The notes beneath the pieces are model-generated. The model was not told the DNA's origin. It saw only the letters and a program-made list of their open reading frames with translations, and did no database searches. This document shows, one piece after another, positions 5,809 through 60,502 of a stretch of 64,000 bases of DNA (position 1 is the stretch's first letter; each line of letters opens with the position of its first letter). Both the position numbers and the translations under genes were made by a program. This DNA comes from Escherichia phage Ec_YwIITB1: sequence record PQ356294.1, one strand, 5' to 3'.

Positions 5809-7370
5809 ATGACTATCAAAACTAAAGCTGAACTTTTGAACAAATGGAAGCCATTACTGGAAGGTGAAGGTTTACCGGAAATTGCTAATAGCAAACAAGC
5901 GATTATCGCTAAAATCTTTGAAAACCAGGAAAAAGATTTCCAGACAGCTCCAGAGTACAAAGACGAAAAAATCGCCCAGGCGTTCGGTTCTTTCTTAACA
6001 GAAGCTGAAATCGGTGGTGACCACGGTTACAACGCTACTAACATTGCTGCTGGTCAGACTTCTGGCGCAGTAACTCAGATTGGCCCAGCTGTTATGGGTA
6101 TGGTACGTCGTGCTATTCCTAACCTGATTGCTTTCGATATTTGCGGTGTTCAGCCGATGAATAGCCCGACTGGCCAGGTATTTGCACTGCGTGCAGTATA
6201 TGGTAAAGACCCAATCGCTGCTGATGCTAAAGAAGCATTCCACCCAATGTATGGTCCAGATGCAATGTTCTCTGGTCAGGGTGCTGCTAAGAAATTCGCG
6301 CTAGCACACAAACTACTGTAAGTTGGAACCATTTACACCTATTTCTTCCAGGAAACTGGTACTGTATATCTGCAAGCTACCTCTAGTTAAAGCAAATTGA
6401 TACAAGTGCTTCTGACGCAGCTAAATTAGATGCTGAAATTAAGAAACAAATGGAAGCTGGCGTATTGGTAGAAATCGCTGAAGGTATGGCTACTTCTATC
6501 GCTGAACTTCAGGAAGGTTTCAACGGTTCTACCGATAACCCATGGAATGAAATGGGATTCCGTATCGATAAACAAGTTATCGAAGCTAAATCTCGTCAGC
6601 TGAAAGCTGCTTACTCTATCGAATTAGCACAAGACCTCCGCGCTGTTCACGGTATGGATGCTGATGCTGAACTGTCTGGTATTCTGGCTACCGAAATCAT
6701 GCTGGAAATCAACCGTGAAGTTGTTGATTGGATTAACTACTCAGCTCAGGTTGGTAAATCTGGTATGACCCTGACTCCGGGTTCTAAAGCTGGTGTATTT
6801 GACTTCCAGGATCCGATTGATATTCGCGGTGCTCGCTGGGCAGGTGAATCCTTTAAAGCTCTGTTGTTCCAGATTGACAAAGAAGCAGTTGAAATTGCTC
6901 GTCAGACCGGTCGTGGTGAAGGTAACTTCATTATCGCTTCCCGTAACGTAGTTAACGTTCTGGCTTCAGTTGATACTGGCATTTCTTATGCTGCACAGGG
7001 TCTGGCTACCGGCTTTAACACTGATACTACCAAGTCAGTATTTGCTGGTGTTCTGGGTGGTAAATACCGTGTATACATCGACCAGTATGCTAAACAGGAT
7101 TATTTCACTGTAGGTTATAAAGGTCCGAACGAAATGGATGCTGGTATTTACTACGCTCCATATGTAGCTCTGACTCCGCTGCGTGGTTCCGATCCGAAGA
7201 ACTTCCAACCGGTAATGGGATTCAAAACTCGTTACGGTATCGGTATCAACCCATTTGCAGAATCCGCTGCTCAGGCTCCGGCTTCTCGCATCCAAAGCGG
7301 TATGCCTTCTATTCTTAATAGCCTTGGTAAAAACGCTTACTTCCGCCGTGTATATGTTAAAGGTATCTAA
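5809..7370 (+). CDS. 23: Major capsid protein gp23; reading frame broken by several small indels between about 6290 and 6450 in the sequence as given (probable sequencing error)
   Basis: ORFs 5809..6321 and 6450..7370 match T4 gp23 N- and C-terminal parts; intervening residues (TQTTV, VGTIYTYFFQETGTVYLQ, KQIDTSASDAAKLDAEIKK) are found in shifted frames. Confidence 0.9.
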
Positions 7371-10356: not shown

Positions 10357-11786
10357 TTATGGATAGGTATAGATGATACCAGTTTCTAAAGCAGTTTTAT
10401 GAATGATGTATCCATTGCGTGATTCTTGAACATCAACTTCTGGATAGTCTTTCATCATCTTCTGAAGAGTGTAACGATGCAGGTAGTATTTACTGTCTGG
10501 ATCTTCAGTTTTCCAATCTTTACCTTCTTCGGTCATTTTTTGGATTTCATCCATAACCCACCAGCCGCACCAGATATAAGCCGAAGTACGATGTGGAAGA
10601 GGATGAACATAAGGCAATTCACCTTCTGGTTCCGGAGCAACTTTATCAGTTACCTGAACTTGGCCTGTTGCTTTAACTGTTTTACTATCATAGTCGGTTG
10701 CTGTAACGACAGCAGTAACTTCAATAGTTTGACTTCCAATAGATGAGGTGTCAACGGTGTATACATTAGTTGACCCTTCTACAGGAGAAGAATCTTTCTT
10801 CCATGAATAAGTAATTTGAGCTGCTTCAGGTGCTCCGTGACATTAGCCGTAAATGTAGCCGAAGCATCTTGCTGAACGTTAATAGAAGGAGGAGTCAATG
10901 TAACCTGTGGATTCATTGTCTTCTTATTAACTGTCAATGATACTTCATTAGAAGTAACTTCCTTTGCATCATAATTTTCAGCCGTTACTTGGGCTACACA
11001 CTTAACTGTTTTAGCTCCAACTGTGGTAGGAGTATAGTTAAATGTAGTAGTAGTTTCTCCATCGACCAGAGAACCGTCAACATACCACTGATACGTAGCA
11101 GACGCTCCTGGTGGCTGTGAAGCCAAGGTAGCAGTAAATTGAACTGGGGTTCCAATAACTCCTGCTGGAGGATTAGCAGGAGTTACGGCTAACGTAGTTG
11201 TCTGTGTTTTCTTATTAACAGTCAGTGACACTTCATTAGAAGTAACTTCCTTTGCATCATAATCTGTCGCGGTTACTTGAGCTACACACTTAATTGTTTT
11301 AACTCCGCTTGCGTCAGGAGTGTAATTGAATGTAGTGCCAGTTGCTTCGCCCACAGGAGAACCGTCAACGTGCCATTGATACGTAGCGTTTGCACTTGGT
11401 GGCTGTGAAGCTAAGGCAGCGGTAAATTCAATTGGAGTTCCAATCACTCCAGCATCAGGGCTACCAGGAGTTACAGCTAAAATAGTTGTTTGTGTCTTAT
11501 TTTGAACCGTGATAGTTGTCGTAGTTTCTGCTGTTTCAGGTTCAGGTTCAGATTCAGATTCTGGAACTGTATTTGTTGCAACGACTTTAATAGTCTTTTG
11601 ACCTGCAGGTCCTTTTAATACATAGCCAAAAGTTGCCGCTTCTCCATCTTGCGGAACATTATCTACACTCCAAGCATAGGTAATAGTTCCATCTCCAGTT
11701 TCACCACTGGGTGTAGCAGTAAACTGCTTGGTTTCATCAATAACTCCTGTTGGGGTTTTAGGAGTTATATCAACTGTAAAAGTCAT
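10357..11786 (-). pseudogene. hoc: Head outer capsid protein Hoc; extra tandem Ig-like domain and an apparent 1-nt deletion (about 10836) separating the Ig domains from the capsid-binding C-terminal domain
   Basis: ORF 10779..11786 (N-terminal Ig domains) and ORF 10357..10617 (conserved Hoc C-terminus LPYVHPLPHR...IIYTYP) in different frames; pseudogene or sequencing error. Confidence 0.8.
10917..11498 (-). repeat. Tandem direct duplication (2 x about 291 bp) encoding two near-identical Hoc Ig-like domains
   Basis: Protein repeat KTQTT.LAVTP...ATYQW.VDGS...KCVAQVTA..YDAKEVTSNEVSLTVNKKT occurs twice in tandem; DNA copies at about 11208-11498 and 10917-11207. Confidence 0.75.
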
Positions 11787-22644: not shown

Positions 22645-22668
22645 GGGGACCGGTCCCCATATTTTTAT
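22645..22668. terminator. Bidirectional terminator between convergent genes 54 and the alt cluster (palindrome GGGGACCGGTCCCC + T-run)
   Basis: 14-nt perfect palindrome followed by ATATTTTTATTT. Confidence 0.6.
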
Positions 22669-23016: not shown

Positions 23017-25073
23017 TACATCTTGAACTTTTTAGACATTCCGTTGATGTTAACCAAAGAAGCCAAGATTTGAGAAACTTCGTTTTCCTCTTCTTTTGAT
23101 TCTTCTACAAGGAATTGATTAAACCCAGCCATTGGACGAACTTCACCAGTTTCCATTAGATGATCGCCATCATATACCGATTCTTCTAATTGTTCAGAAG
23201 GAGGAACGATTGTGCCTTCAATTAGATACTTGTTATAAGCAGTTTCTTTCATCATGTACGTGCTCACTTTATTAATCTTCAGCAAAATTCCACGTGGTAG
23301 AATAACTTCAGCTTCTGATGGAAATCCTGATAAATGACCTGGAACGATAACTTTGATTCGCTCAGCCCCTTTAATTACCATACCTACGCTAGCTTCAGCA
23401 TCTTCATTAGCATATGCAGAATGACTACCCATATGCATTAAATCTTCAGCATCAACAGAACCTTCTCCTTCACCAGAAAATACTGCGCCGGAATCATCTA
23501 GAGCCATATAGTTTTTACCATGCTCACCGAAGATATTTGGTTTAAGCGATGTTGATACGAAGTTCTTGAAATAGAACATTTTATTTTCAATATTATGGCG
23601 TAAAGTTTTAAAAGTAACTTCTTGTCCACGATAAAGCGTAATTCCCGGAGGAAGAACTGAACCTTTGGCAAAGGCAGAATCCAGCGTCTCGATGTGTTTA
23701 ATAGCTCGTTCCATATATTCTTCACGGGTAGAATCTGGTTTACCCAAGAGGAACGAGTTCATTTCAACATATGAATCTGCACAATAATCTTCAATTACAA
23801 CAGACTCAGCCTGAGTTAATCCTTTTGGAGTTACTTCAGTGCTTGCGTATTCATATGCCTGAGCAGCAGATTCATTAATCAATTTATAAATGCCATTCAT
23901 GACAAATTGAATAATAGCTACCTTTTCGTCTGGCGTAGCTTTAGAACCTTTAACTAAATCATTGATAATTTTCTTAATAACATCAAAGCTATTAGAAATA
24001 TTAATGTCAGCGAGATCGCTCAAAATTTTATCGGTTTTATAATCAAAAAATTCTTTATTCTTTAAATATTCTTGAGAACCTTGATATGTTATATCGCTCT
24101 GCAGTCTGATAGACGGATCGCGTAAACGTGCATGGGCCAATGCAATATGATTTCGGAGGCTTTCTAGTTCATAATCGTTAGATTTAAAACGAGAAGCACT
24201 TCTCATACCACCGATAGCTCCTTTGCTGAAGTTGGAACCAATCTGAATAACGCCAGAGTTCATTGGTCCTTCTGCTTTATATACCGGAACTTTAGATTCA
24301 AACTCTTGATATTTCTTGGCGGCGAAGCTATCGCCCTGAAGTGAAGCATCGACAGTAGAATATTGAGCTTGCGCTGCCAATCGACGACTAATTTTAGTTT
24401 TCTGAATAACAGCTTGATCCGTGCGCTTATCATTTTCTAAAGCAATAGAAGCAGCAACAGCAACAGCTTTAGGAACAGCATTACCTGTTTTAACATCTAC
24501 ATAAACATCACCAACCTTTGATTCAACTTTTGTGAATAACTCAGTTGAAATAGGAGGTACACCTGGAATGTCTTCTAAATTGGCATTTTTACGGTAAACC
24601 ATAATATATGCATACTTTTTATCATAATCCCAGATTTCCTTTAAAAGAACATATCGACCTGCTCCTTTAGTACGTACTAAACGGTCAGCAATAACTTGCA
24701 TCTGACGAGCTGCGCCATTTGTTTTACTTTTTAGTACGCGGAATAGGCATGCATCAATTTTATACTGTTTCATTGTTTGAAGAGCAGTATCAAAAACCGC
24801 ATTAATGACACCAATTGGATTTCCACCCAAGTTTTTAAGTTTAACTAATGATAGTTTCTCATTAACACCTATCATTACGATATGCATCATTTTATCGCCT
24901 GGCTTAACGTTTTTATTTGTATCACCGCCAGAGGTGTATGTACAAAATCTAAATCCAGGAAGCACACTTTCTTCGCCGGCTTGAATAGCAAAAATTTGAG
25001 GTATTTTATGCTTAGGATTTAAGTTAACAACCGGCGCCGAAGCGCCGTCAAATAATTCTGTAATAAGTTCCAT
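23016..25073 (-). CDS. Alt-like mono-ADP-ribosyltransferase paralog (intact R-S-EXE motifs)
   Basis: 685-aa ORF; N-terminus MELITELFD...; motifs YRGQ, FVSTSLKPNIFG, SEAEVILPRG; paralogous to adjacent alt. Confidence 0.8.
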   Translation of the reverse strand: MELITELFDGASAPVVNLNPKHKIPQIFAIQAGEESVLPGFRFCTYTSGGDTNKNVKPGDKMMHIVMIGVNEKLSLVKLKNLGGNPIGVINAVFDTALQTMKQYKIDACLFRVLKSKTNGAARQMQVIADRLVRTKGAGRYVLLKEIWDYDKKYAYIMVYRKNANLEDIPGVPPISTELFTKVESKVGDVYVDVKTGNAVPKAVAVAASIALENDKRTDQAVIQKTKISRRLAAQAQYSTVDASLQGDSFAAKKYQEFESKVPVYKAEGPMNSGVIQIGSNFSKGAIGGMRSASRFKSNDYELESLRNHIALAHARLRDPSIRLQSDITYQGSQEYLKNKEFFDYKTDKILSDLADINISNSFDVIKKIINDLVKGSKATPDEKVAIIQFVMNGIYKLINESAAQAYEYASTEVTPKGLTQAESVVIEDYCADSYVEMNSFLLGKPDSTREEYMERAIKHIETLDSAFAKGSVLPPGITLYRGQEVTFKTLRHNIENKMFYFKNFVSTSLKPNIFGEHGKNYMALDDSGAVFSGEGEGSVDAEDLMHMGSHSAYANEDAEASVGMVIKGAERIKVIVPGHLSGFPSEAEVILPRGILLKINKVSTYMMKETAYNKYLIEGTIVPPSEQLEESVYDGDHLMETGEVRPMAGFNQFLVEESKEEENEVSQILASLVNINGMSKKFKM

Positions 25074-25076
25074 GAT

Positions 25077-27131
25077 TTATCCTTGAACGAACTTGTAAGG
25101 CATGTTTGTAATATCTATGCAAGACGCAATAATTCCAAGAGATGATTCTACTTTTTGTTTAACATTTGATGAAACAAATGATGCAAAGTCAACTCTGTCT
25201 TCTATTTCAATATCATCTGTCATTGCAACTACTTCACCAGTTTCCATTAGACGATCACCGTCATAAATTACTGATTCGGTGAGTTCTTCGGTAGTCATAA
25301 CTTCAGCTTGAATAAGCTTGTTGTTAGTTTTAGCTGTTCCATCATTGTAAGATGCGTCGGTTATTTTATTGACTTTGACCATCAATCCACGCGGCAAAAT
25401 GACTTCCATTTCATTTGAAGGCGCTAAACTTCCACCTGGTAAAACAACGTTGACTTTATCAGCCCCAGTAATAACCCATCCAATTCCAACTAAATTATCG
25501 CTAGAATTAACAAGTCCTTCATCGTTTTTATCGATAGAAATGTTTAGACGCTTTTCGTCTGGTAAAACACCCACAGCTGAATCAGTCATCCAAGTACCAA
25601 AAATGTTTGGATATAATGATGTTGATACAAAATTTCTAAAATAAAAAACTCGATTTTTTACCAATGCTTCATATATTGAAGGAGCAGTCATGCTTTGAGC
25701 ACGATAAACTGTAATGCCTTCTGGTATACGGTCACCATTTTCAAAGGCTGAATCTAAATTATTTATCGCAGATTCAATTTCTTTTTCACTCATTACCTCA
25801 TATCGTTCTGGATTATATAATCCCAAAAGAGCATTATTCATGTCTACATATCCTGAACCTACGTATTCACGAATTCCGCGTTTTTGTGCCGGTGTGTATT
25901 TAGATGAATCTTTATTTTCGACTATAGAATGCAATGACCATCCAACGGTAAGAGCATATCCACGTAATTCTCTTCGAATAATCTTTGTTTTTATTGCATT
26001 CCAAGAATTTTGCACTAACTCATTCGCAGCATCTTGATTTAAATGCGAATGCTTGTTAATATTTCTTTCTAACCAAGCACCTTTATATTTTTCTAAAGTA
26101 TCATCAACTATAGAAGCAATAGTTTCTAAAGTTTTTATTGAAGTAATAGATTCTTTTCGTAATCTTTCTAAAGCTTTATTTTTTATTTCTGCATTAACAT
26201 CAGATTCTTTATCTTCAGGAATTATAGAAGCTTCTCTGAATGCCATTCCAGCTGTAACACTATTAAGAGCATTCTCTAATGCAAATCCTGAAGTAGAAAT
26301 AACAGTTAATTCGTTAGCATCAGAAATTAAAGGCGCGTCAGCGGGTTTATTTAATTCTGCTGCTGAAGCCTCAAATTTTTGAAACATTGGTGTTTCAAAT
26401 CTAGAAGATTCTAATGATTGACTTTGTGCAATTGCTCTACGGGAAATTTTAACTTTAACGATTACAGCTTGGTCAGAACGTTTATCGTTTTCTTGCGCAA
26501 TAGATGCAGCAATGGCCTCATTTTTAGTTACTTGAGCTCCGGTATCTTTATTGATATAAACATCGCCGACTTTCGATTCAACTTTAGTAAAGAGCTCTGT
26601 ACTAATTTCAGGAACTCCTGGAATGTCTTCTAATGATACATTTTTGCGATGTATAAGAATATATGCATACTTTTTATCGTAATCCCAGAGTTCCTTAAGA
26701 AGGACGTATCTGCCACCTGAACGACTACGGATAAGTCTATCAGCAATAAGTTGAATTTGACGAGCTTGACCAGCAGTTTTAGACTTAAGAATACGGAGCA
26801 TGCAGGCATCAATTTTATACTGACGCATCGTTTGCATTGCAACAGTAAAAACTGAATTGATATAATTAATTGGGCTTGGACCGAGACCTTTTAATTTAGC
26901 GATTGAACCTTTAGCAGTTAATGTAAAAGGAACAATATGCATCATTTTATCGCCCATCTTTAAATCGCGATTAGTATCACCTCCAGATGTGTAGGTACAT
27001 AAACGAAAACCTGGTTGTTCAATTGCGTCATCAACATGAACTGAAAAAATTTGCGGTATTTTCTTCTTTGGATTTAAGTTTGTAATCGGAAGAGTAGTAT
27101 CTTCGTCAAATAATTCTGTAATGAGTTCCAT
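25077..27131 (-). CDS. alt: Alt ADP-ribosyltransferase (packaged, modifies host RNA polymerase)
   Basis: ORF 25077..27134; start at MELITELFDEDTT...; motifs YRAQ, FVSTSLYPNIFG, NEMEVILPRG; matches T4 Alt. Confidence 0.9.
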   Translation of the reverse strand: MELITELFDEDTTLPITNLNPKKKIPQIFSVHVDDAIEQPGFRLCTYTSGGDTNRDLKMGDKMMHIVPFTLTAKGSIAKLKGLGPSPINYINSVFTVAMQTMRQYKIDACMLRILKSKTAGQARQIQLIADRLIRSRSGGRYVLLKELWDYDKKYAYILIHRKNVSLEDIPGVPEISTELFTKVESKVGDVYINKDTGAQVTKNEAIAASIAQENDKRSDQAVIVKVKISRRAIAQSQSLESSRFETPMFQKFEASAAELNKPADAPLISDANELTVISTSGFALENALNSVTAGMAFREASIIPEDKESDVNAEIKNKALERLRKESITSIKTLETIASIVDDTLEKYKGAWLERNINKHSHLNQDAANELVQNSWNAIKTKIIRRELRGYALTVGWSLHSIVENKDSSKYTPAQKRGIREYVGSGYVDMNNALLGLYNPERYEVMSEKEIESAINNLDSAFENGDRIPEGITVYRAQSMTAPSIYEALVKNRVFYFRNFVSTSLYPNIFGTWMTDSAVGVLPDEKRLNISIDKNDEGLVNSSDNLVGIGWVITGADKVNVVLPGGSLAPSNEMEVILPRGLMVKVNKITDASYNDGTAKTNNKLIQAEVMTTEELTESVIYDGDRLMETGEVVAMTDDIEIEDRVDFASFVSSNVKQKVESSLGIIASCIDITNMPYKFVQG

Positions 27132-31987: not shown

Positions 31988-32340
31988 TATAAATTCTCTT
32001 TTAAATGAAAATGCAGGACTTATTGACATTGCCTGCTAAAGCCCTCAAGGGGGACATAGGTTTTTGAATATTTAACGACCAGGATAACCATAAACCCGTC
32101 AACATACCTTATAGCTCTTATCTGTTGCACACCGTTAGCTTAAAGGTTCCGGGTTCGATTTCTCGAGGATAAGATATATACTGATGGATATATAGGCCTT
32201 GAGGCGTACTCCCGATTAGCCATCACCTCGGGGTAGCATGCACTTGCCGCTATAAAATAACATTCAAGAGGTACACCGTAAAACAAAGTTCGACGGCTCC
32301 TCGATTTTAGCTCACACTAAGGCAGTGAATCTCCAATAAA

Positions 32341-38708: not shown

Positions 38709-40296
<1,588 letters not shown>

Positions 40297-40323
40297 AATA
40301 AAATGGGCCTTGTGGCCCACTCC

Positions 40324-41498
40324 TTAAAAATATTTTTTAAAACTCATCATAACTTTATCATCAACATCATTATCAATCTGTGCTACAAGATAAGATGACA
40401 GTTCTACTTCTTGCGGCGCGGATTGAACATTATCAGAATTAAGATATTCACGAATCCAAGGATACGGGTGTTTAACCGGAGCATCGGTAATTGGGCATGG
40501 AAGACCACACTGTTTCATACGAGATACAGTTAAGTAATCAATAAAGTTCCACATGCTATTTGTATTTAATCCAGGAACATCGCCATCTTTAAATAAATGA
40601 ACTGCCCAGTCTTTTTCTTGGCGGTTAACTTCCATGAAAATATCAACTGCTTCTTGTTCACACTCTTGGGCGATTTTAACCCATTCATCACCATCAGTGC
40701 CAAGTTGAAGTTGACGAATAATATATTGGGTGCCTTTAAGGTGAAGCTGTTCATCACGTGCAATGAACTTCATAATCTTGGCATTACCTTCCATGATTTC
40801 CATGTTTTTATGGAAGTTAAAGGTACATGCGAAAGATACGTAAAAACGAATAGCTTCCAGTGCGTTGATTACATGCAGACAAAGGTAAAGAGAACGCATT
40901 AGTTCACGTTTCCAATACATTTCATGCTCTATGGCATCTTTAATATCATCTTCGTCTGCGTTAATTTCTTTTTGGTACTCAATATCAGCTTTAGCATTCT
41001 GCCACGAGTTTTCTCAATAACATCATCATAGTAACGACCAATAGATTCAGCACGTTTCATGATAGCTTTATCTAATACAATCTCATCAAATACTTTTGAC
41101 GGATCAGTATAAAGATTCCGCATGATATGAGTGTATGAACGACTGTGAATAGTTTCGCTAAAAGTCCATGTAGCAACCCATGTATCAAGGCTTGGGTCTG
41201 AAATTAACGACATAAGTACAGCAGACGGTGCACGACCCTGAATGCTATCCAAAAGTGATTGATACTTCAGGTTATTAGTAAAAATATCTTGCTGATACTG
41301 AGGAAGCTTGTTAAATTGTGCAGCATCCATCATCAAGTTTACTTCTTCAGGACGCCAGAAAAATGACAACTGCTTTTCGGTTAAATCTTCAAAAACTTTA
41401 TGGCGTTGAATATCATAACGCGCAATACCAAGACCTGAACCGAAGAACATAGGTTCTTTTAAAACATCAACTGGATTTGTATTAAAAACTGTGCTCAT
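40324..41498 (-). pseudogene. nrdB: Ribonucleotide reductase beta subunit NrdB, intron-less, with apparent net -1 frameshift near 40994 in the sequence as given
   Basis: ORFs 40929..41498 (N-terminal 165 aa good, then out-of-frame tail) and 40324..40920 (C-terminal part) together span about 388 codons; pseudogene or sequencing error. Confidence 0.85.
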
Positions 41499-41549: not shown

Positions 41550-43814
41550 TCATAATTTACAGGATGAACAATCTTCAGCTTTTGGAGTTTCTATTTCATA
41601 ATCATCAGTACCAGAACCGTCACGGGTATTATGATAATAGAAATTTTTTCCGCCAAAATACCAAAAATACAAAAGGTCATCAATCATTATTGACATTGGA
41701 ACCTTTCCTTTTGGAAAAATCTGCGGGTCATAATATGTATTCGCTGAAGCTGATTGACACACCCATTTCAGCATAATAGCTACTTGCGTAAGATAAGGTT
41801 TATTGCCTTTCTTAGCTAATTTCCATGTATAATCATAGAGGTCTATGTTGTGCTCAATATTGGGCACGACTTGATTAAAGGAGCCCTCTTTTGATTCTTT
41901 AACAGAGACTGGTCCACGTGGAGGCTCGATACCGTTTGTACTGTTAGAAACTTGGGAAGATGACTCACATGGCATAAGTGCTGATAATGTGCTATTACGG
42001 ATGCCAAAGAGCTTAAGGTCTTCCCGCAGCGACGACCAGTCACAAACGTATTTTGGAGCTGCGATTTGGTCAATCTTTTTATTGTACCAGTCGATAGGTA
42101 ATTCGCCTCGAGACCAACGAGTGTCTGAATAATATTCGCAAGGTCCTTTTTCTTTGGCGAGCTTAATGGATGCTTTAATGAGTCCATACTGTAGTCTCTC
42201 AAATAGTTCATGTGTTAAATCGTTAGCATCTTCATAAGAAGCAAAATTACTTGCCAGCCAAGCTGCATAGTTAGTAACACCTACGCCAAGGTTTCGACGT
42301 TTTTTAGCTTTTTCTGCTTCAGGAACTGGATATCCTTGGTAATCCAAAAGATTATCAAGAGCACGAACTTGGACTTCTGCCAATTCATTAATTTTATCTT
42401 GGTCTTGCCAATCGAAGTTATCTAACACAAATGCAGATAACGTACACAATCCAATTTCAGCATCAGGACTATTCACATCATTTGTTGGAATAGCAATTTC
42501 ACAACACAAGTTGCTCTGACGAATAGGTGCCTTTTCACGAATAAACGGAGTATAGTTATTCGTATTATCTATGAACTGTACATAAATCCTTGCTGTTCCT
42601 GAGCGTTCAGTCATGAGCAATTCAAACAGTTCACGGGCTTTAATACGCTTTTTACGAATATTAGGGTCTTTTTCTGCAGCTTCATATAATTCACGGAAAC
42701 GGTCTTGGTCTTTAAAATAAGAATAGTAAAGTTCGCCACCCATTTCATGCGGACTGAACAAAGTAATGTAATCATTCTTTCCAAATCGTTCCATCATCAA
42801 ATCATTCAGCTGGACGCCATAATCCATATGACGGATACGGTTTTCTTCTACACCTTTGTTATTTTTCAAAACGAGAAGATTTTCAACTTCCAAATGCCAA
42901 ATAGGATAATAAGCAGTAGCAGCGCCGCCACGAATTCCACCCTGTGAGCATGATTTAACAGCAGTTTGAAAATGTTTCCAAAAAGGAATAACACCAGTAT
43001 GACGTACTTCACCTGTGCCAATCTTAGAACCTTCGGCACGAATCATACCAACGTTAATACCAATTCCAGCGCGTTTGGAGATATACTCAACAATTGAAGC
43101 GGAAGCCTTATTGATAGACTTTAATGAATCACCTGCCTCAATAACAACGCATGAACTAAACTGCCGAGTTGGAGTACGGCAACCAGCCATAATAGGGGTT
43201 GGCAGTGAAATCTGTCGAGTAGATACTGCTTCATAAAAACGAATAACGTGTTTTAATCTATCAACAGGTTCATCTTGATGCAATGCCATTCCAATAGTCA
43301 TAAATGCAAACTGTGGAGTTTCATAAATTTGACCAGTGGTTTTATCTTTAACTAGATATTTTTCTTTTAATTGCATCGCCCCGGAATAAGTAAATTCCAT
43401 ATCCCGTTCGTGCTTAATTTTTGATTCTAAAAATGTAATTTCTTCTGCTGAATATTTTGACAACAATTCAGGGTCGTATTTACCTTCATTTACACAGTAA
43501 GAAATATGGTCAATAAATGAACGTGGTTCATACTGCCCGTAAACATGCTTACGAAGAGCGAACATTAAGCAGCGTGCAGCTACATATTGATAATCAGGCT
43601 CTTCAACTGAAATAGAATTCGCAGCAGCCTTAATTACAATGGTTTGAATGTCATCAGTTGTCATTCCATCACGGAGATATGATTTAATATTTTCATATAA
43701 TTCATAAGGATCTACAGATGTTCCTTCAGCTGCCCAAGATAAAACTTTAATAATTTTTTGTGGGTCAAAGCTCTGAGAAACACCACTACTTTTGATAACA
43801 TTAATTAATTGCAT
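41550..43814 (-). CDS. nrdA: Ribonucleotide reductase alpha subunit NrdA
   Basis: 754-aa ORF matching T4 NrdA. Confidence 0.95.
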   Translation of the reverse strand: MQLINVIKSSGVSQSFDPQKIIKVLSWAAEGTSVDPYELYENIKSYLRDGMTTDDIQTIVIKAAANSISVEEPDYQYVAARCLMFALRKHVYGQYEPRSFIDHISYCVNEGKYDPELLSKYSAEEITFLESKIKHERDMEFTYSGAMQLKEKYLVKDKTTGQIYETPQFAFMTIGMALHQDEPVDRLKHVIRFYEAVSTRQISLPTPIMAGCRTPTRQFSSCVVIEAGDSLKSINKASASIVEYISKRAGIGINVGMIRAEGSKIGTGEVRHTGVIPFWKHFQTAVKSCSQGGIRGGAATAYYPIWHLEVENLLVLKNNKGVEENRIRHMDYGVQLNDLMMERFGKNDYITLFSPHEMGGELYYSYFKDQDRFRELYEAAEKDPNIRKKRIKARELFELLMTERSGTARIYVQFIDNTNNYTPFIREKAPIRQSNLCCEIAIPTNDVNSPDAEIGLCTLSAFVLDNFDWQDQDKINELAEVQVRALDNLLDYQGYPVPEAEKAKKRRNLGVGVTNYAAWLASNFASYEDANDLTHELFERLQYGLIKASIKLAKEKGPCEYYSDTRWSRGELPIDWYNKKIDQIAAPKYVCDWSSLREDLKLFGIRNSTLSALMPCESSSQVSNSTNGIEPPRGPVSVKESKEGSFNQVVPNIEHNIDLYDYTWKLAKKGNKPYLTQVAIMLKWVCQSASANTYYDPQIFPKGKVPMSIMIDDLLYFWYFGGKNFYYHNTRDGSGTDDYEIETPKAEDCSSCKL

Positions 43815-45232: not shown

Positions 45233-46257
<1,025 letters not shown>

Positions 46258-56383: not shown

Positions 56384-60502
<4,119 letters not shown>

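Follow-up and report, generated by a model that had tools for sequence, protein, structure and literature searches.

A probable consensus error divides nrdB at the edge of a hypervariable cassette in a T-even phage sequence

The nrdB gene in the sequence of Escherichia phage Ec_YwIITB1 (PQ356294.1) is split into two open reading frames (ORFs) by a deficit of 4 nt at the edge of a hypervariable cassette. Judged from sequence comparisons, the split is probably (about 0.78) a consensus or assembly error of the deposited sequence and not a feature of the living phage. This reading is the most likely one because the same 64 kb also contains broken genes for the capsid and the tail fibre, both of them indispensable. 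The stretch of DNA analysed, referred to here as the window, comprises 64,000 nt. BLAST searches with three large pieces of it placed it among the T-even phages (Tequatrovirus), in the T2/pSs-1 type; the nearest phage records were ~96–98% identical to the window, and none of them was identical. Coordinates of the nrdB features and of the other lesions are collected in Table 1.

Table 1. Positions in the window of nrdB features, neighbouring genes and further lesions
Feature	Position	Strand	Details
N-terminal nrdB ORF	40929-41498	-	189 aa; stop TAG at 40929-40931
C-terminal nrdB ORF	40324-40920	-	198 aa from first ATG (40918-40920), which is M193 of the intact protein
nrdB codons 1-165, native frame (M1...KTR165)	41005-41498	-	First half of di-iron/tyrosyl motifs, FSETIHSRSYTHI
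24 out-of-frame codons and TAG closing the N-terminal ORF	40929-41004	-	Tail GRMLKLILSTKKKLTQTKMILKMP
nrdB lesion	41002-41005	-	4 nt absent relative to every relative examined; window reads ACTCG/TGGCAG (alignments)
nrdB hypervariable cassette	40906-41004	-	~codons 166-199, ~100 nt; T2/KFS-EC3-type within UGKSEcP2-type backbone
Homologue of T4 nrdB group I intron insertion site	40826-40827	-	nrdB nt 672/673; uninterrupted (window/T4/T2 alignment)
nrdA	41550-43814	-	Followed by 51-nt spacer, then nrdB
denA	39886-40320	-	Follows nrdB; followed by rnlA
Gene 23 (major capsid protein) lesion	6296-6390	+	Gene 5809-7370, in pieces 5809-6321 and 6450-7370
hoc lesion	10833/10834	-	1-nt deficit, window ACGGA-GCACC; gene 10360-11786
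Conserved intergenic terminator hairpin GGGGACC-GAAA-GGTCCCC	22645-22658		4-nt loop lost at 22651/22652
frd (dihydrofolate reductase) lesion	45685/45686	-	Clean 4-nt deficit, TCTG on coding strand; gene 45438-46012
Gene 37 (distal long tail fibre) lesion	56426-56441	+	2 extra nt at codon 17; gene 56385-59697

Two reading frames and a 4-nt deficit in nrdB

The split gene is unambiguously that of the class Ia ribonucleotide reductase (RNR) beta subunit, NrdB. Both halves match the Pfam profile PF00268 (Ribonuc_red_sm; cut-off 33.6 bits), the N-terminal half with 74 bits over profile positions 9–143 and the C-terminal half with 61.5 bits over positions 154–271. A single continuous ORF of ~389–392 aa carrying both EXXH motifs and the radical tyrosine was not found in the window; the motifs are distributed over two ORFs in different frames, with EAIRFY and RDEQLH, which make up the remaining half of the iron ligands, encoded on the C-terminal ORF together with the C-terminal tail. 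When pSs-1 NrdB was compared with the window by tblastn, residues 1–165 aligned at 41498–41004 with 97.6% identity, and the alignment continued in the -1 frame, where residues 167–392 matched 41004–40327 with 99.6% identity. This other frame reads WQNAKADIEYQKEINADEDD... from 41004 downward, and translation of 40929–41004 in the -1 frame yields the native cassette WQNAKADIEYQKEINADEDDIKDAIEHE. The proposal of the earlier note that the N-terminal ORF ends in about 24 out-of-frame codons is thereby borne out, as is its spacing of 8 bp between the two halves, which is the gap between the TAG of the N-terminal ORF and the ATG of the C-terminal ORF.

Alignment with KFS-EC3, T2, T4 and pSs-1 revealed a 4-nt deficit in nrdB of the window. 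Moreover, a 1221-nt query from the window covers 1225 nt in 40 of the 40 phage records listed. The lesion falls at codon 165/166, corresponding to nrdB nt 494, and on the plus strand joins TGCCA (41000–41004) to CGAGT (41005–41009); its exact placement drifts within 41002–41005 with the choice of allele aligned. Relatives of the T2 type read ACT AGA TAT TGG CAG at this site and those of the UGKSEcP2 type ACT CGT GAA TGG GAA, while two IMG/VR relatives read ACT CGC TAT TGG CAG. A net -1 indel near 40994 had been predicted from the sequence. Its effect on the frame was correctly described, and the comparison with T2, named at the time as a check, upholds the frameshift; the size was not correct, the deficit being 4 nt, nor was the site, which lies ~10 nt away at 41004/41005, the upper edge of the interval considered.

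Addition of 4 nt restored a clean 392-aa NrdB ORF whose product differs from that of KFS-EC3 at two residues, excluding the two codons changed by the test insertion. The sole other window-unique change in nrdB is a synonymous TAT>TAC, and the gene shows no sign of decay after the break. A plain deletion from the commonest neighbouring allele was also considered. It was rejected: ACT CGT TAT TGG occurs in none of the records of the phage collection, close T2-type relatives read ACT AGA TAT, and the CG at the lesion is that of the UGKSEcP2-type backbone.

The window nrdB is intron-less, as the earlier note had concluded, although the argument offered there, that ORFs 8 bp apart leave no room for the group I intron of T4 nrdB, does not hold. 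The homologue of the T4 insertion site lies 178 nt downstream of the lesion and within the C-terminal ORF, and the spacing of the two ORFs is therefore irrelevant to the absence of an intron. The conclusion itself follows from colinearity of the window with intron-less T2 across 40826/40827 and from Rfam, which returned zero family matches across the whole window, group I introns included. Neither the td intron nor the nrdB intron was found in the window, and mobE was not found between nrdA and nrdB. An intron remnant at the ORF split is ruled out by the distance to the insertion site, its intact state and the blank Rfam result. A homing-endonuclease scar is likewise ruled out, with the lesion at nt 494 as against nt 122–126 for the MobE nick in T2 nrdB (PMC2790892) and nt 672 for the I-TevIII/intron site.

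The hypervariable cassette and its joints

The lesion is found at the left boundary of the nrdB cassette, a segment examined in an alignment of ~60 relatives (34 IMG/VR loci, 10 contigs with identical NrdA and 10 with identical RNase H). Among loci L001, L002, L047–L056 and L068–L076, at least five unrelated cassette allele types are present (T2-, T4-, UGKSEcP2-, L049/L076- and L053/L075-type), each set within flanks of nearly identical DNA. The T2-type haplotype reads TGGCAGAATGCTAAAGCTGAT... and the UGKSEcP2-type haplotype GAATGGGAAAACGCAAAAGAAATT.... So many unrelated alleles within ~100 nt of an enzyme gene that is otherwise near-identical make the NrdB cassette the biologically more interesting by-product of this analysis.

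In the window, both nrdB flanks are of the UGKSEcP2 type (L047/L016), the left one reading ...GTTATTGAGAAAACTCGTG and the right one GAACTAATGCGTTCTCTTTACCTTTGTCTGCATGTA. Mismatches to L047 number 2/94 just upstream of the cassette, 57/104 within it and 2/95 just downstream. Relative to L001, by comparison, the cassette shows 4/104 mismatches, all of which are the gap itself, and no internal mismatch. The right joint of the cassette is in register, whereas the left joint is shifted out of register by 4 nt: the UGKSEcP2 type reads ACTCGTGAATGGGAA there, the T2 type ACTAGATATTGGCAG, and the window carries the fusion ACTCGTGGCAG, 4 nt short. The combination of a UGKSEcP2-type backbone with a T2-type cassette was absent from all relatives examined.

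Searches for the same arrangement in other public collections yielded no second copy. The exact nrdB junction was not found in IMG/VR or in JGI metagenomes, and a scan of GTDB genomes returned just three 19-mer matches, which are chance occurrences in unrelated bacteria. Neither nrdB ORF product is on record in a gene-position index of 153 billion gene positions; an exact-product look-up for gp38 also gave no match. In two panels of neighbouring contigs, nrdB is intact, at 389 or 392 aa, in every contig that has the gene fully inside the fetched DNA. The two-frame arrangement occurs in 0 of the ~60 aligned relatives, all of which read the lesion site in a single frame.

Other lesions in the window

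A survey of broken genes, in which every annotated pSs-1 protein was compared with the window by tblastn, revealed at least four frame-broken genes besides nrdB, namely gene 23, gene 37, hoc and frd. The reading path of gene 23 across 6296–6390 passes from frame 1 to 3, back to 1 and again to 3, with stops in every frame. At least three allele types, joined with 1–2-nt errors, are patched together in this segment: ASTQTTV is of the L058 type, VGTIYT...QAT...KQID of the L059/L064 type and YTYFF/SS of the L066 type. The intact protein, gp23, measures 521 aa in 10 of 10 relatives with identical gp21. The gene 37 ORF, read from its native ATG, meets a stop after 24 codons, 8 codons past the lesion. 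Here GGTCAGCACGT resembles a fusion of two natural alleles, GGTCAACGT and GGTGCACGT, both of which are partly retained. The ATT codon in AAAATTGCAGG (56415–56430) is unique to the window, with relatives reading ACT, ACC or ATC at this position; ATT is what would result if ACT and ATC were mixed column by column, in keeping with a consensus of mixed strains.

The 1-nt deficit of hoc lies exactly at a switch of allele type, from ACGGATGCTCC to ACTGGCGCACC. A split hoc is also present in GenBank record MZ234042.1 (locus L061). The frd deficit is unique to the window and falls within the variable cassette of that gene, but not at an allele switch; a window-unique G>T (within 45700–45716), 24 nt from the deficit, creates GTCGAC. 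The terminator hairpin, deprived of its loop, is a perfect palindrome, GGGGACCGGTCCCC. The region containing it spans 201 nt in the window as opposed to 205 nt in 12 of the 12 phage records listed, all of which have the loop, and this deficit is also clean, with no allele switch there. No shared motif or restriction-site logic was found behind the three 4-nt deficits of the window, those of nrdB, frd and the terminator loop. Overall, lesions coincide with a switch between known alleles in nrdB, hoc, gene 23 and gene 37, but not in frd or the terminator loop. Those of hoc, gene 23 and gene 37 share the anatomy of the nrdB lesion, in which two known allele types are joined with a length error.

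Local diversity was calculated for each panel of relatives as per-site nucleotide diversity over the columns occupied by the window, in windows of 41 nt. An initial measure was dropped because it was confounded by large insertions present in some relatives only. The nrdB, frd and gene 23 lesions fall within the top 0.2–4% most diverse 41-nt windows of their own panels and the hoc lesion at the 94th percentile, while the 41-nt window of the gene 37 lesion is not unusually diverse. SNPs unique to the window number ~18 per 7580 invariant columns. A globally noisy sequence was rejected on account of the rarity of such substitutions.

Two other parts of the window were noted in comparison with pSs-1. 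Tandem Alt-like ADP-ribosyltransferase paralogues at 23025–27131 have a mutual identity of ~41%, the same arrangement as in pSs-1. Deficits of 44 nt and 21 nt at 32285 and 32690, respectively, are seen relative to pSs-1, the sole comparison for these sites, in DNA that is probably intergenic.

Origin of the split and comparison with known systems

Plaque formation requires both gene 23 and gene 37. With both of them broken, the window sequence cannot faithfully copy a viable phage, and because the lesions in these two genes would not be tolerated, at least four indels in the window must be sequence errors. Both gp23 and gp37 are counted among the T4 core-genome components that serve morphogenesis; nrdA/nrdB and frd are quasicore genes that can be circumvented, with nrdA/nrdB classed under 'auxiliary metabolism' (Petrov et al., PMC2993671). 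The 4-nt deficit, its place at the cassette edge, its uniqueness and the other broken genes are direct observations; we infer that the nrdB lesion, too, probably arose in silico. The most economical explanation is that reads from several closely related T-even strains went into the consensus or were used to polish it. At a short hypervariable cassette, where the strains carry unrelated alleles, such a consensus could jump from allele to allele out of register. In nrdB, the left-edge switch from the UGKSEcP2-type backbone to the T2-type cassette would have come 4 nt too early or too late, and the switch back on the right would have kept the register. The true nrdB would then be an ordinary intron-less gene for a 392-aa class Ia RNR beta subunit. 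Sequencing error, the outcome that the earlier note had itself set against its claim, is the best-supported reading of the sequence. The frameshift is there as described, but the lesions in gene 23, gene 37, hoc and frd make it doubtful that the phage itself has it.

Several points count against an artefact. The substitution quality of the window, gauged by its rate of unique SNPs, is good. Short-read assemblers based on de Bruijn graphs cannot create a junction at 2–3 nt of microhomology, and an artefact therefore requires a long-read consensus, a reference-guided consensus or polishing. Furthermore, nrdB, frd and hoc are dispensable in T4 and would be the preferred targets of real pseudogenisation. 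Finally, a merge of haplotypes does not obviously account for the clean deletions in frd and the terminator loop.

A real pseudogene is the main alternative, though an unlikely one. Co-infecting T-even phages would have exchanged the cassette out of register at microhomology TG/TGG with loss of 4 nt, and the recombinant would survive on host NrdAB. The lesion does lie on the cassette boundary, where just 2–3 nt of homology would be available for recombination of the diverged alleles, but equivalent lesions are found in the indispensable genes 23 and 37, so that lesions of this kind arise here without biology. Loss of the gene could be borne, as nrdA/nrdB are quasicore and can be circumvented (Petrov et al., PMC2993671). 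The auxiliary or decorative genes frd and hoc, which are dispensable, are broken as well, and hoc is known in split form from a second GenBank record, L061 (MZ234042.1). The good overall substitution quality of the window also favours a pseudogene. Against it, the nrdB allele of the window is absent from all other collections searched, and neither half of nrdB shows secondary decay, which fits a very recent event at best. If the lesion were real, which we regard as improbable, a cassette swap in a mixed infection would have left the phage dependent on the host reductase or, much less likely, equipped with a two-piece R2 through termination-reinitiation 8 nt downstream.

Assembly of an active R2 from an N-terminal fragment (165 native plus 24 junk aa) and a C-terminal fragment re-initiated at ATG 40920 is very improbable. 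Re-initiation could exploit the stop-ATG gap of 8 nt and a weak GAG seven nt ahead of the start codon, and the cut is within a hypervariable stretch; in E. coli R2 the corresponding position is a surface loop that lies between two core helices. The fragments, however, would hold half of the di-iron ligands each and lack 27 native residues (Y166–E192), the arrangement is unique and unselected, and lesions of the same kind affect essential genes of the window. Phage Aeh1 sets a precedent with an RNR large subunit that is fragmented yet functional (PMC3045599), but the homing endonuclease and interaction domains of Aeh1 have no counterpart between the two nrdB halves.

Production of full-length NrdB by -1 ribosomal frameshifting has just as little chance of being correct. 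Slippage would take place in the 25-codon overlap, which runs from the -1-frame TGA (in GTTATTGAG) to the 0-frame TAG; one candidate site is C AAA AAG (ACC AAA AAG). The native frame is -1 relative to the N-terminal ORF, the overlap contains a codon-aligned A-AAG-type shifty motif, and T-even phages are known for translational recoding, such as the gene 60 bypass. A regex scan of the overlap nonetheless found no canonical X XXY YYZ heptamer and C AAA AAG alone. This motif and its downstream sequence are identical in intact relatives, which translate them in the normal frame, and nothing there has evolved for shifting. The arrangement is conserved in 0 of the ~60 aligned relatives, and ~10 native residues would become junk. 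Nothing beyond geometry speaks for either frameshifting or a two-piece enzyme.

The main value of these results is as a quality flag. The window provides no basis for inferring loss of aerobic ribonucleotide reductase, dihydrofolate reductase or Hoc, nor for annotating 'split' genes, and hypervariable cassettes emerge as points where strain-mixed assemblies break. Were the nrdB lesion true, it would be a further instance of a T-even phage losing a dispensable auxiliary gene, a finding of modest interest since nrd mutants of T4 have long been known to be viable. It would also be a case, caught in the act, of cassette shuffling that damages a metabolic gene.

In its pattern of lesions the window resembles strain-collapsed or mis-polished draft phage assemblies, with multiple frame-breaking indels in short hypervariable segments and essential genes among those hit. 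It is also like the chimeric genes of draft assemblies in that two known alleles meet at its joints and bases there are lost or duplicated, but it differs from them in the clean 4-nt deficits of frd and the terminator loop, which lie off allele switches. Aeromonas phage Aeh1 likewise has a class Ia RNR gene in the form of two adjacent ORFs, although the gene concerned is nrdA. The 'genes-in-pieces' nrdA-a/nrdA-b of Aeh1 encode a large subunit split by insertion of mobE, and the fragments assemble via acquired interaction domains into a functional enzyme (PMC3045599). The window, in contrast, breaks the small subunit by a 4-nt deficit, with nothing inserted (8 nt from stop to ATG) and part of the protein lost. 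T4 nrdB is orthologous to the window gene and shares its flanking genes; unlike the window, T4 has the 598-nt group I intron at nrdB nt 672, with its defunct I-TevIII, and mobE/nrdB.1 between nrdA and nrdB. Apart from the 4 nt missing at codon 165/166 and a mix of backbone and cassette unseen in the relatives examined, the window locus is like that of the T2-type Tequatroviruses T2, KFS-EC3, pSs-1 and UGKSEcP2. Their intron-less nrdB is 96–98% identical to it in DNA sequence, lacks the intron and mobE as the window does, and stands in the same order of nrdA, 51-nt spacer, nrdB, denA and rnlA.
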